Assembly (NCBI RefSeq): GCF_057098645.1
Contig: NZ_CM169472.1
Length of the DNA stretch: 64,000 nt
Direction: 5' to 3' (one strand)
Program-made: the position numbers
Shown here: in pieces, positions 40,801 to 43,058 of the stretch
Numbering within the stretch: the first letter of the stretch is position 1
How the letters are laid out: the number at the start of each line of letters is the position of its first letter

Positions 40801-43058
40801 TCGTCGGTCAGTGGTTGATGGTGCTGGCGCTTTCAGCCGTTACCGGTGGGGCGATAGGCCTGTTGTTCGAAAACGTGTTGATGGTGCTGCTCAAGCCCGT
40901 TCTGCCTGCTGCACTACCGCCTGCCAGTCTCTGGCCGTGGCTGTGGGCGCTTGGCACCATGACAGTCATCTCGCTGCTGGTGGGGCTACGACCGTACCGC
41001 TTGTTGCTGGCAACGCAGCCTTTACGCGTATTACGTAATGATGTGGTAGCGAACGTCTGGCCGCTGAAGTTTTATCTGCCGATTGTCAGTGTGGTGGTTG
41101 TGCTGCTGCTTGCCGGATTAATGGGCGGCAGTATGCTGCTCTGGGCGGTGCTGGCGGGCGCGGTAGTACTGGCTTTGCTGTGCGGTGTGCTGGGCTGGAT
41201 GCTGCTGAATGTACTTCGCCGCATGACGCTGAAATCGCTGCCTCTGCGCCTGGCGGTTAGCCGCCTGTTACGTCAGCCGTGGTCAACGTTAAGCCAGCTT
41301 TCAGCTTTTTCGCTCTCCTTTATGCTGCTGGCGCTGCTGCTGGTGTTGCGTGGCGATCTGCTAGACCGCTGGCAACAACAGCTACCGCCAGAAAGCCCGA
41401 ACTACTTTTTAATCAACATCGCCACAGAACAGGTTACGCCGCTAAAAGCGTTCCTCGCGGAACATCAGATAGTCTCGGAATCGTTTTATCCGGTGGTGCG
41501 AGCGCGGCTGACGGCGATTAACGGCAAGCCGACAGAAGGCAATGAAGATGAGGCGCTCAACCGCGAACTCAATCTTACCTGGCAAAATACGCGGCCCGAT
41601 CATAATCCGATTGTCGCCGGTAACTGGCCGCCAAAAGCTGATGAAGTGTCGATGGAAGAGGGGCTGGCGAAACGCTTAAACGTTATCCTCGGCGATACCG
41701 TGACTTTTATGGGCGATACCCAGGAGTTCCGCGCTAAAGTGACCAGCCTGCGCAAAGTGGACTGGGAAAGTTTGCGGCCTAATTTCTATTTTATTTTCCC
41801 GGAAGGGGCATTAGACGGGCAACCGCAGAGCTGGCTTACCAGTTTCCGCTGGGAGAATGGCAACGGCATGTTGACGCAACTCAACCGCCAGTTCCCGACC
41901 ATTAGCCTGTTAGACATTGGCGCGATTTTAAAACAGGTCGGTCAGGTGCTGGAGCAGGTAAGTCGGGCGCTGGAGGTGATGGTAGTGCTGGTCACCGCCT
42001 GCGGTATGTTGCTGTTGCTGGCACAGGTGCAGGTGGGAATGCGTCAGCGTCATCAGGAGCTGGTGGTGTGGCGCACACTCGGTGCGGGGAAAAAACTACT
42101 GCGTACCACGTTGTGGTGTGAGTTCGCCATGCTTGGGTTTGTTTCCGGCCTGGTGGCCGCAATTGGTGCGGAAACGGCGCTGGCAGTGTTGCAGGCGAAA
42201 GTGTTTGATTTTCCGTGGGAGCCAGACTGGCGATTGTGGATTGTTCTGCCGTGCAGCGGTGCGCTGCTGCTGTCGCTTTTCGGCGGCTGGCTGGGTGCGC
42301 GACTGGTTAAGGGTAAGGCGCTGTTCAGGCAGTTTGCGGGGTGATGACAGGTGTTAGATTGCCTGATGCGCTACGCTTATCAGGCCTACGAAGAGCGTGC
42401 AATATATTGATTTTGCAAGATTGTGTAGGCCGGATAAGGCGTTTACGCCGCATCTGGCATGAACAGTGTGCATTTTGGCAATAAATCTGAAACCAACTGT
42501 CATGTCGGTTTTTTAAAGGCCGAAGGTGGTAAACCTTCGGCCTTAGCGACGTTTCCTCAGTTATTCAATAAACTGACGGATCAGTTCCAGCAGCGCGATT
42601 AGCGCCTTAAGAACGATGAGAACTTTATCGAGAAAAGTTTTCATCCGTTGCTCCCTTAAGGGAGAAAGACAATCACAGCTTACCCTTACGTTGCCTGTAA
42701 CTATGATTTTCTTCATGTGCTAGATGAGGACTGCCTCTCTCCAAATTAGAGCACCAGAATCAGCACCACCTGTATCCTGACCAGGACTTAAAAGTACTTT
42801 TCCGCACTGCGGTAATCCCTTGAGGCAGTATCACTACTAGCGTCGGGATTGTATCGCCAACATAGCTGTTTGAATATGTAGGCATCCTGACTTATAATTC
42901 ACTTGCTAGATGAGGACTGTTTCATTTCTGCCCGGAACCACCAAGTCTTGGGCGGAAAAAATAAAAAAACCGACTGTCATGTCGGTTTTTTTATATCTGT
43001 ATTCTGGTGCAACCATTCTGTTCTCACGACAATCGCCGTTTCAGAATACCGCCCATCA

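Follow-up and report, generated by a model that had tools for sequence, protein, structure and literature searches.

A Shine-Dalgarno stem-loop in a dinQ-like type I toxin mRNA between ybbP and mnmH, probably switched by upstream elements and an AgrB-like small RNA

Relation of the ybbP-mnmH locus to dinQ-agrAB and its relatives

The closest described system is dinQ-agrAB, a type I toxin-antitoxin locus of Escherichia coli K-12 (Weel-Sneve 2013, PMC3567139; Kristiansen 2016, PMC5066626). SHAPE, S30 translation, and mutants with compensatory changes established that stem-loop SL5 of the dinQ mRNA (CUCCA-UCGCA-UGGAG) shuts the Shine-Dalgarno (SD) sequence in the +1 transcript, which is inert, and that 5' processing opens it (PMC5066626). 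The related dql family (dqlA/dqlB) occurs on chromosomes and plasmids of Enterobacteriaceae, with 14 dql sequences given in Figure 3 of Kristiansen 2016 (PMC5066626), and one of its members, DqlB-agrB, is an addiction module of pOXA-48 in which agrB base-pairs with the 5' UTR, as demonstrated with compensatory mutants (PMC12365149). Two further systems, tisB-istR-1 and zorO-orzO, also have a divergent sRNA whose target, in a long 5' UTR, is remote from the ribosome-binding site (RBS), and require 5' processing for activity. Their SD lies in a CUCCUU...AAGGAG hairpin, closed in both forms of the mRNA, and translation proceeds via a ribosome standby site; for tisB, the SD is closed in the +1 and +42 forms alike (PMC5066626). 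Although their peptides belong to other families, the leaders and 3' ends of tisB and zorO align with those of dinQ/dql along the whole mRNA.

The window analyzed here (64,000 nucleotides of contig NZ_CM169472.1, assembly GCF_057098645.1) carries a locus of this kind in the intergenic region between ybbP and mnmH of an E. coli chromosome, whereas dinQ of K-12 lies between gor and arsR. An ORF of 27 codons plus stop on the minus strand (42561 to 42644) encodes a hydrophobic peptide, MKTFLDKVLIVLKALIALLELIRQFIE, that matches the NCBIfam model NF041472 (toxin_DinQ) with 40.9 bits (cut-off, 30; E = 1.8e-10). Against the DqlB model, it reached 24.5 bits and fell short of the cut-off (35 bits), and a search with family models gave no match to TisB. 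The copy in the window is chromosomal, unlike the plasmid dql genes such as DqlB of pOXA-48, and its peptide fits the DinQ model better than the DqlB model; like the dql genes, it belongs to a family defined by UTR similarity and signature residues. The peptide shares its length of 27 aa and the core IVLKALIALLELIR (IVL.ALIALLELIR) with DinQ of K-12, but it has three more residues at the N terminus and three fewer at the C terminus. Its start codon, ATG instead of the GTG of K-12 dinQ, lines up with AACGG-[A/G]TG, a sequence conserved in the family.

The similarity extends far beyond the coding sequence. The mRNA aligns to K-12 dinQ from end to end with a mean column identity of 77% (pairwise), and both the pairwise and the seven-sequence alignment (A6) revealed similarity of the 5' UTR, which is about 190 nt long, to the dinQ leader, comprising SL2, SL4, and the ACAGGC motif. 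The conserved SL2 motif, AAGUCCUGG-N10-GGUGGUGC, is located at 42763 to 42789 (minus strand). At the other end of the transcript, a terminator hairpin (42515 to 42544, minus strand) is predicted, with a stem of 12 bp and UUU behind it; it shows homology to GAAACGU..CUAAGG...CCUUUAA, the 3' end of dinQ/dql. Folding of the whole mRNA gave a z score of −5.45, and none of 100 shuffled sequences folded as well.

Divergently from the toxin gene, the plus strand encodes a single AgrB-type antitoxin sRNA (42906 to 42994), compared to two antitoxin genes, agrA and agrB, in K-12. It matches Rfam RF02891 over its full length with 53.6 bits (gathering score, 40), aligns to agrA/agrB of K-12, and folds with a z score of −4.88. 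A near-consensus sigma-70 promoter, TTGAAT-17-TATAAT (10 of 12 matches), precedes it at 42870 to 42898 (plus strand). As for the Agr RNAs of K-12, its putative target is the UTR upstream of the RBS: the 5' end of the sRNA is complementary to 42742 to 42719 (minus strand) over 18 contiguous base pairs and, after a 1-nt mismatch, 4 more. This pairing was judged by contiguous 5' complementarity alone; duplex energies of the whole sRNA with the whole mRNA were discarded, since agr and the UTR are homologous through an inverted duplication, which inflates such energies. RefSeq records of more than 1,100 E. coli genomes name the locus dinQ. The first-pass annotation had called the ORF a type I toxin, and the family match, the RefSeq annotation, and the divergent AgrB sRNA all bear this out: the locus is a member of the DinQ/AgrB (dinQ-like, dql) group of type I toxin-antitoxin systems, and its peptide would, by analogy with dinQ, be a membrane toxin.

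The Shine-Dalgarno stem-loop and its conservation

It had been noticed beforehand that a perfect 14-bp palindrome immediately precedes the 27-codon ORF, and the minus-strand transcript was proposed to form a 5-bp CUCCC/GGGAG stem with a UUAA loop that sequesters the SD. The sequence agrees: the palindrome CTCCCTTAAGGGAG covers exactly 42651 to 42664 and is followed, after 6 nt (CAACGG), by the ATG. In the minus-strand RNA, the anti-SD CUCCC (42664 to 42660), the loop UUAA (42659 to 42656), and the SD GGGAG (42655 to 42651) are followed by CAACGG and the AUG (42644 to 42642). By its sequence, its fold, and 26 homologues, this stem-loop corresponds to SL5 (elements 3:4) in the dinQ mRNA. Its place, its CUCC/GGAG core, and the AACGG ahead of the start codon are the same, and it differs in the top pair of the stem (C-G versus A-U in K-12) and in the loop (UUAA versus UCGCA). 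The proposed sequestration of the SD is thus matched in position and sequence by a hairpin whose closure has been demonstrated experimentally (PMC5066626).

Neither the number of palindromes nor the folding energy carries this assignment. Perfect 14-bp palindromes occur five times in the window, compared to 3.9 expected in random sequence and 4.1 ± 1.7 in shuffled sequence, which is not unusual, and therefore, no argument is rested on the count. The isolated hairpin has a folding energy of −6.5 kcal/mol (−5.1 kcal/mol in K-12), which is unexceptional in its 36-nt context (z = −1.25; 24 of 200 shuffled sequences fold equally well). However, the experimentally validated SL5 of K-12 has a z score of −1.17 in the same kind of context, and hence, the energy of a single hairpin is uninformative as a measure. 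The palindrome derives its meaning from homology; position and conservation, not count, lift the hairpin above chance.

Members of the family were gathered via one UTR motif. Scanning of genome contigs for AAGTCCTGG-N(6-16)-GGTGGTGC gave, among the matches listed, mostly chance hits in GC-rich genomes together with at least about 12 matches in 11 loci that are true relatives, and about 15 more relatives came from viral contigs. In every one of the 27 distinct SD regions, a local SD hairpin folds. The 26 distinct leaders compared, from dinQ/dql/tisB/zorO, have an essentially unchanging CUCC/GGAG core; the two stem pairs next to it covary, and the loop varies freely in sequence and length; the spacer between the arms ranges from 3 to 17 nt with variable sequence, and still the arms are complementary. 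Since variable loop lengths threw the arms out of register in a MAFFT alignment of the SD regions (A3), it was replaced by an alignment anchored by hand on CUCC and GGAG, with the loops as filler (A4). In A4, 94.1% of the cells are paired, a value to which the anchoring contributes for the four core pairs but not for the covarying ones. The covariation score was 0.207, compared to 0.050 ± 0.017 after shuffling that ignores phylogenetic relatedness (0 of 500 shuffles reached the score), and at most 0.069 in slid controls. Stem pair 5 is represented by AU (11), UA (7), CG (4), and UG (1) and stem pair 6 by UA (8), GC (4), CG (2), and AU (1). An invariant core, covarying pairs, and a freely varying loop argue for an RNA hairpin and against a DNA operator. 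Close relatives hold the stem with non-palindromic loops, such as CUCCC-AUAC-GGGAG (L217), and for this reason the palindromy of the 14 bp at the DNA level is, judged by these sequences, incidental. A function of the palindrome as terminator or attenuator was also considered and rejected, since a U run following it is absent on both strands.

A predicted switch in the leader and its alternatives

The alignment with K-12 dinQ sets the transcription start near G42841 (GCUAG versus GUUAG in K-12), an inferred rather than mapped +1. A putative −10 box, TACAAT (42848 to 42853, minus strand), aligns with TATGAT of dinQ; a good −35 box was not found for the toxin promoter, and the consensus promoter scan made no call there. 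Element 1, the 5' arm of a long locking stem (S1), would comprise the first nucleotides of the transcript (42822 to 42841, minus strand), and S1 joins the 5' end to the zone of element 2 in the predicted full-length folds. Element 2, GGAGAGAGGCAGUC (42729 to 42742, minus strand), is overlapped by the predicted Agr target site (42719 to 42742, minus strand); element 3, GAUUGUCUUUCUCC (42661 to 42674, minus strand), holds four of the five anti-SD bases and can pair with either the SD or element 2. In minimum free energy structures, the partner of element 2 is element 1 as long as the mRNA is of full length and element 3 once the 5' part has been truncated. Elements 1 and 2 differ in sequence from those of K-12 dinQ, but their pairing is kept, and so, as far as predicted, is the 1:2/2:3/3:4 logic with its long 5' locking stem.

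In our model, the 5' end of the primary transcript starting at about 42841 would pair with 42742 to 42719 in the long stem. With element 2 locked by the 5' end, element 3 would be free to fold onto the SD, and the resulting CUCCC/GGGAG hairpin would block 30S binding, as in K-12 dinQ. Removal of the 5' arm, by a processing event analogous to that giving the +44 form of dinQ, would liberate element 2 (42742 to 42729), which may then capture element 3 in a 14-bp duplex incompatible with the SD hairpin. Finally, pairing of the AgrB-like sRNA with 42742 to 42719 would mask element 2 and return the mRNA to the closed state; the sRNA-mRNA duplex is, by analogy with dinQ, probably also a substrate of RNase III. 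Processing, the translational block by the closed hairpin, and the toxicity of the peptide are all inferred from experiments on K-12 dinQ.

Folding of the leader, suggested earlier as a check of the hairpin, agrees with this sequence of states as far as the hairpin itself is concerned. The pair probability of the SD hairpin is 0.95 to 1.0 in the full-length mRNA, falls to about 0.18 upon 5' truncation, and rises to 0.90 to 1.0 when the Agr site of the truncated mRNA is masked. The 2:3 duplex of the window comprises 14 bp with −22.2 kcal/mol. Throughout the family, cognate elements 2 and 3 pair with −17.1 kcal/mol, compared to −12.6 kcal/mol for non-cognate combinations, a difference reached in 0 of 5,000 permutations (which ignore phylogenetic relatedness), and the cognate pairing of the window, −21.4 kcal/mol versus a mean of −10.4 kcal/mol with the element 2 zones of other members, is the best of 27. 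TisB-type leaders have no such cognate advantage (−12.8 to −14.6 versus about −13.4 kcal/mol). Rather than acting as a stand-alone block, the hairpin would be one of the states of a switch that also involves the upstream elements and the Agr sRNA. The main caveat to opening of the SD by processing comes from the same predictions: in the truncated mRNA, the SD (GGAGCA) is re-paired with UGCUCU (42748 to 42753, minus strand), and the probability that GGAG is unpaired is at most 0.03. The calculated cost of opening the SD changes little, from 7.8 kcal/mol in the full-length to 7.2 kcal/mol in the truncated mRNA, but that of K-12 dinQ, our positive control, also changes only from 3.9 to 3.5 kcal/mol, and the opening demonstrated by SHAPE is not reproduced. 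Therefore, opening energies were dropped as a test of the switch; a model that fails on the control is uninformative rather than contradictory.

Taking these data together, we regard it as likely that the palindrome reflects, in the DNA, an SD stem-loop in the mRNA of a type I toxin of the dinQ-like (dql) kind that is switched by upstream elements and an AgrB-like sRNA. An alternative is offered by tisB and zorO, whose leaders are homologous and have the same SD hairpin: whatever the form of the mRNA, the hairpin would stay closed, 5' processing would expose a single-stranded standby site for ribosomes to pre-load on, and the role of the Agr-like sRNA would be to compete for this site instead of closing the hairpin again. 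The SD is indeed predicted to be paired in full-length and truncated mRNA, the stem of the window is stronger than that of K-12, and the authors of the dinQ study did not exclude standby binding for dinQ (PMC5066626). Against a standby mechanism stand the very strong, co-evolved 2:3 pairing that consumes the anti-SD in the window, the lack of a cognate advantage in TisB-type leaders, and the drop in hairpin probability on truncation, and we consider this explanation unlikely.

Less probable still is that the palindrome is a chance feature of a decaying, non-functional toxin remnant. The unremarkable palindrome count and local folding energy would fit a remnant, as would the uncalled toxin promoter and the presence of the locus in only about 21 to 24% of complete E. 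coli genomes, but none of ORF, SD, terminator, sRNA, and the promoter of the sRNA is damaged, compensatory changes keep the hairpin in diverged homologues, and the cognate 2:3 pairing, the best in the family, and the z score of the whole-mRNA fold also speak against decay. The perfect inverted repeat could also be read as a signal at the DNA level, such as an operator to which a dimeric protein binds, and a plasmid dqlB homologue (L009) likewise has a perfect 14-bp palindrome, TCCCTTATAAGGGA. Arms that stay complementary across a spacer of variable length, with covarying extensions, are the signature of an RNA helix and not of an operator of fixed geometry, and the predicted +1 lies about 190 nt upstream of the site, which adjoins the start codon; a role at the DNA level is the least credible of these readings. 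The preferred reading, that of a switched SD stem-loop, adds no new kind of element: the on/off SD hairpin is already published for E. coli dinQ, as are its mechanism and the gene family, and the locus is in RefSeq, so that the finding is correct but ordinary. The analysis bears out that a reading of sequence alone had recognized a real regulatory RNA element and a real type I toxin, and the family-wide hairpin and 2:3 covariation provide comparative support for a model of mutually exclusive structures that was founded on a single gene.

SOS control, annotation, and variation among E. coli genomes

In K-12, the LexA box of dinQ, TACTGTATGATTATCCAGTT, lies over the −10/+1 region, with matches at 7 of the 8 core positions and at 15 of all 20. 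A local search found no LexA box at the homologous position in the window; the best LexA-like site, AGCTGTTTGAATATGTAGGC (42864 to 42883), matches 6 of the 8 core positions and 11 of all 20. Hence, the paralogue is probably not SOS induced, and "damage-inducible" is, on sequence grounds, probably the wrong product name for it. It is conceivable, although we hold this only tentatively, that the paralogue is a non-SOS hybrid of DinQ and TisB, in which the SD is always held, at first by the CUCCC hairpin and, once the transcript has been processed, by UGCUCU as a second anti-SD, so that standby binding or transient opening would be needed, and that dinQ/dql, tisB, zorO, and a TisB/ShoB-like group, instead of being independent families with an outward likeness, form one superfamily on one ancestral mRNA scaffold, to which the SL2 motif, the ACAGGC sequence, the SD hairpin with CUCC...GGAG, and the terminator would belong.

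Many RefSeq records list a product of 51 aa for the locus; over-long N termini are frequent in the annotation of dql genes as well. The conserved start yields 27 aa, and the longer product is probably extended too far. The practical value of the analysis is modest and lies in this correction, in the doubt about the product name, and in the comparative support for the structural model. Genomes with the ybbP-mnmH locus have a second dinQ-like match elsewhere (two places per record). The 70-nt SD region is identical in 1,085 of 1,135 E. coli genomes, and a variant found among these genomes, U42665G, extends the stem to GCUCCC/GGGAGC.

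A dinQ-like toxin gene behind a palindromic ribosome-binding site

The sequence CTCCCTTAAGGGAG forms a perfect 14-bp palindrome at window positions 42651 to 42664. In the minus-strand RNA it reads CUCCC-UUAA-GGGAG, followed by CAACGG and the AUG (42644-42642) of a toxin ORF whose stop codon lies at 42563-42561 (minus strand) and whose 27-residue product is MKTFLDKVLIVLKALIALLELIRQFIE. The first-pass annotation had placed a palindrome just upstream of a 27-codon ORF, and its sequence, positions and reading frame are all correct. The palindrome alone is not beyond chance: the window has five perfect 14-bp palindromes (expected, 3.9; shuffles, 4.1 ± 1.7; no excess), and the folding energy of the 36-nt hairpin context gives z = −1.25, with 24 of 200 shuffles folding as well.

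The ORF had also been called a toxin, and this holds: the peptide belongs to the DinQ family (NCBIfam NF041472, toxin_DinQ; 40.9 bits, cutoff 30), and a full-length AgrB antitoxin sRNA lies upstream at 42906-42994 on the plus strand (Rfam, 53.6 bits; gathering score 40), where a promoter scan found TTGAAT-17-TATAAT in front of it on the same strand. The ybbP-mnmH intergenic region (711 bp) matches E. coli O145:H28 chromosomes with 100% identity, at least 80% of it is present in 1314 of 5426 complete genomes, and RefSeq annotates a dinQ CDS at this site. The toxin mRNA (minus strand) aligns with that of K-12 dinQ all the way from the −10 region to the terminator, with a mean column identity of 77%. 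Carrier genomes have two places per record, dinQ proper being the other, which makes this locus a second paralogue of the dinQ-like (dql) kind described by Kristiansen et al. 2016 (PMC5066626). Related plasmid loci, DqlB-agrB of pOXA-48, were later confirmed to act as toxin-antitoxin modules (PMC12365149).

In many genomes, the RefSeq/PGAP product is a 51-amino-acid "DinQ" (WP_001308457.1; 42561-42716, minus strand), whose start ATG at 42716 lies inside the 5′ UTR, has no Shine-Dalgarno (SD) sequence and adjoins the sRNA target; its N-terminal extension is not conserved. The family alignment and the SD position point to the 27-amino-acid product starting at ATG 42644, as annotated for the same sequence in E. 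coli MLI023K1. The longer CDS is thus probably over-extended, a problem also reported for dql by Kristiansen et al. (PMC5066626).

The K-12 locus differs in several respects. It has two agr genes and a GTG start codon, compared to one agr gene and ATG here, and its SD region reads CUCCA-UCGCA-UGGAG, AAAACGG, GUG, with a less stable stem (−5.1 versus −6.5 kcal/mol in the window). K-12 dinQ has a LexA box (7 of 8 core positions matched, 15 of 20 in all), whereas none was found at the homologous position (42840-42885 searched); the best candidate near the window's promoter (6 of 8, 11 of 20) lies elsewhere. Because of this, the RefSeq name "damage-inducible" is probably unjustified for the paralogue and inherited from the model. 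A plausible −10 element, TACAAT, is found at 42853-42848 (minus strand); a consensus promoter scan made no call for the toxin promoter.

Conservation of the SD hairpin

The comparison covered 26 to 27 distinct SD regions (dinQ, dql, tisB-type and zorO-type genes) found in plasmids, E. coli genomes, GTDB genomes and IMG/VR contigs; each of these members, which were ascertained via one UTR motif, is predicted to form a local hairpin that includes the SD. All share the CUCC/GGAG core, shifted in register (UCCC/GGGA) in two plasmid dqlB genes, and the loops, 3 to 17 nt long, are unrelated in sequence. Among the E. coli carriers of the window locus, 1085 of 1135 have an identical 70-nt SD region. 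For an SD-region alignment, we anchored the sequences by hand on the two core motifs, put filler in place of the loops and masked pairs that sterics forbid. Paired cells make up 94.1% of this alignment, and the covariation score is 0.207 compared to 0.050 ± 0.017 for shuffles that take no account of phylogeny (0 of 500 reach it; slid controls, ≤0.069). The fifth stem pair occurs as AU (11), UA (7), CG (4) and UG (1), and the sixth as UA (8), GC (4), CG (2) and AU (1).

A conserved, covarying stem with a variable loop indicates an RNA helix; a protein operator is argued against by covarying arms whose loops vary in length and sequence. The perfect palindromy of the DNA is thus an accident of the UUAA loop; relatives keep the stem while loops vary. 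The closest collected relative of the window peptide, VKAFLDKVLIVLKALVALLELIRQFID (L217, with its own AgrB), retains CUCCC/GGGAG around an AUAC loop. This dql/agr locus (758-896 of an IMG/VR contig), also the closest collected from outside E. coli, adjoins a group II intron domain match (Rfam RF02003, 103 bits), consistent with a mobile-element context. The SD hairpin of dqlB on the Salmonella plasmid pSAbAus, TCCCTTATAAGGGA, has a register-shifted SD (AGGGA) and is likewise a perfect palindrome of 14 bp; chance thus produces palindromy repeatedly when a loop is self-complementary and 4 nt long.

Structural switch in the toxin mRNA

The K-12 counterpart of the hairpin is SL5 (element 3:4), established by SHAPE, destabilizing and compensatory mutants, and S30 translation (PMC5066626). 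In the inert +1 transcript, SL5 keeps the SD sequestered; in the processed transcript (+44), it opens because element 3 is captured by element 2, and AgrB bound to element 2 closes it again (PMC5066626). This counterpart and the family conservation support the earlier reading of SD occlusion in a type I toxin mRNA. The element is a member of a known family, with a mechanism experimentally established in a paralogue. Processing, translation control and toxicity at the window locus would follow the homologue.

With +1 set at G42841 by alignment to K-12, the mRNA has a predicted length of 326 nt and a strong fold (−121.2 kcal/mol, z = −5.45). In the full-length minus-strand RNA, 42841-42822 pairs with 42738-42719, and the CUCCC/GGGAG stem with its UUAA loop, as claimed from the sequence, has a predicted probability of 0.95 to 1.0 (starts 42845/42850); with a start exactly at 42841, the outer two pairs are engaged elsewhere and the SD is still >96% paired. 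Removal of the 5′ arm (starts 42820-42790; the equivalent of the K-12 +44 site is at ~42794) lets element 2 (42742-42729) pair with element 3 (42674-42661) in a 14-bp duplex (−22.2 kcal/mol) that takes four of the five anti-SD bases, and the hairpin probability falls to ~0.18. Masking the sRNA target (42742-42719), with which the 5′ end of the sRNA pairs over 18 contiguous positions and 4 further ones, makes element 2 unavailable and restores it to 0.90 to 1.0. In E. coli MLI023K1, U42665G directly 5′ of the palindrome extends it to 16 bp with a 6-bp stem (GCUCCC/GGGAGC) and leaves the 2:3 duplex with an A/G mismatch; the toxin mRNA is predicted to be locked more tightly as a result.

Does the SD open at all, or does it stay closed as in TisB-type mRNAs? 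The element-2 zones of the family pair with their cognate element 3 at −17.1 kcal/mol versus −12.6 kcal/mol with those of other members (0 of 5000 permutations reach it, phylogeny ignored), and the window's pairing is the best of 27 (−21.4 cognate versus −10.4 non-cognate). No such cognate advantage was found in TisB-type leaders, and the comparison therefore supports, at the level of modeling, a DinQ-type switch over a permanently closed SD. The SD remains occupied in the model of the truncated mRNA, where GGAGCA pairs with UGCUCU (42753-42748), and its opening cost changes only from 7.8 to 7.2 kcal/mol. The same calculation for K-12 gives 3.9 to 3.5 kcal/mol, and the +44 minimum free energy structure lacks the published S2 stem; nearest-neighbor thermodynamics, failing on K-12 dinQ as well, are therefore no guide to the opening step. 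Standby binding may also contribute, as it does for tisB and zorO (PMC5066626, discussion; PMC5397157).

Relatives and neighboring features

The dinQ/dql, tisB and zorO mRNAs align over their whole length (seven sequences; mean column identity, 59%). The SL2 motif AAGTCCTGG-N-GGTGGTGC, an ACAGGC block, the CUCC...GGAG SD hairpin and the terminator context are common to tisB mRNAs and a ZorO-type mRNA. The loci compared were TisB-type L026 (istR adjacent; Rfam, 116 bits), L038, L060, L081, L112 and L071, the weakly TisB-like L229, and L028, which is probably ZorO-type. These likenesses suggest common ancestry of type I families treated as separate in papers that describe their shared organization and not homology. 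The joint proposition, namely a non-SOS paralogue with a second anti-SD that needs transient opening or standby, within one superfamily of dinQ/dql, tisB and zorO, strikes us as rather unlikely to hold.

The agr sRNA terminator AAACC(A/G)ACTGTCATGTCGGTTTTTT occurs as a direct repeat at 42490-42515 and 42968-42993. The former copy lies directly against the toxin gene at its 3′ end; a G-to-A change breaks its stem, and ~40 nt of agr-like 3′ sequence survive. It resembles what would be left of a lost upstream agr from a putative ancestral tandem [agr][dql][agr] array. In Photorhabdus, dql is found in two tandem copies. Between ybbP and the toxin locus, REP/BIME-type repeats (42382-42464) give sub-threshold Rfam matches to naRNA4 (36.6 bits; gathering score 59.5) and ES036 (35.0; 37.6). 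LexA-pattern matches are in excess in the window (311 versus 226 ± 17 expected); much of this excess is due to near-identical 16-mers such as CCGTCACGCTGAACGG, spaced a few hundred to ~1800 bases apart at ~7900-21300, which suggests a long coding region upstream with internal repeats.
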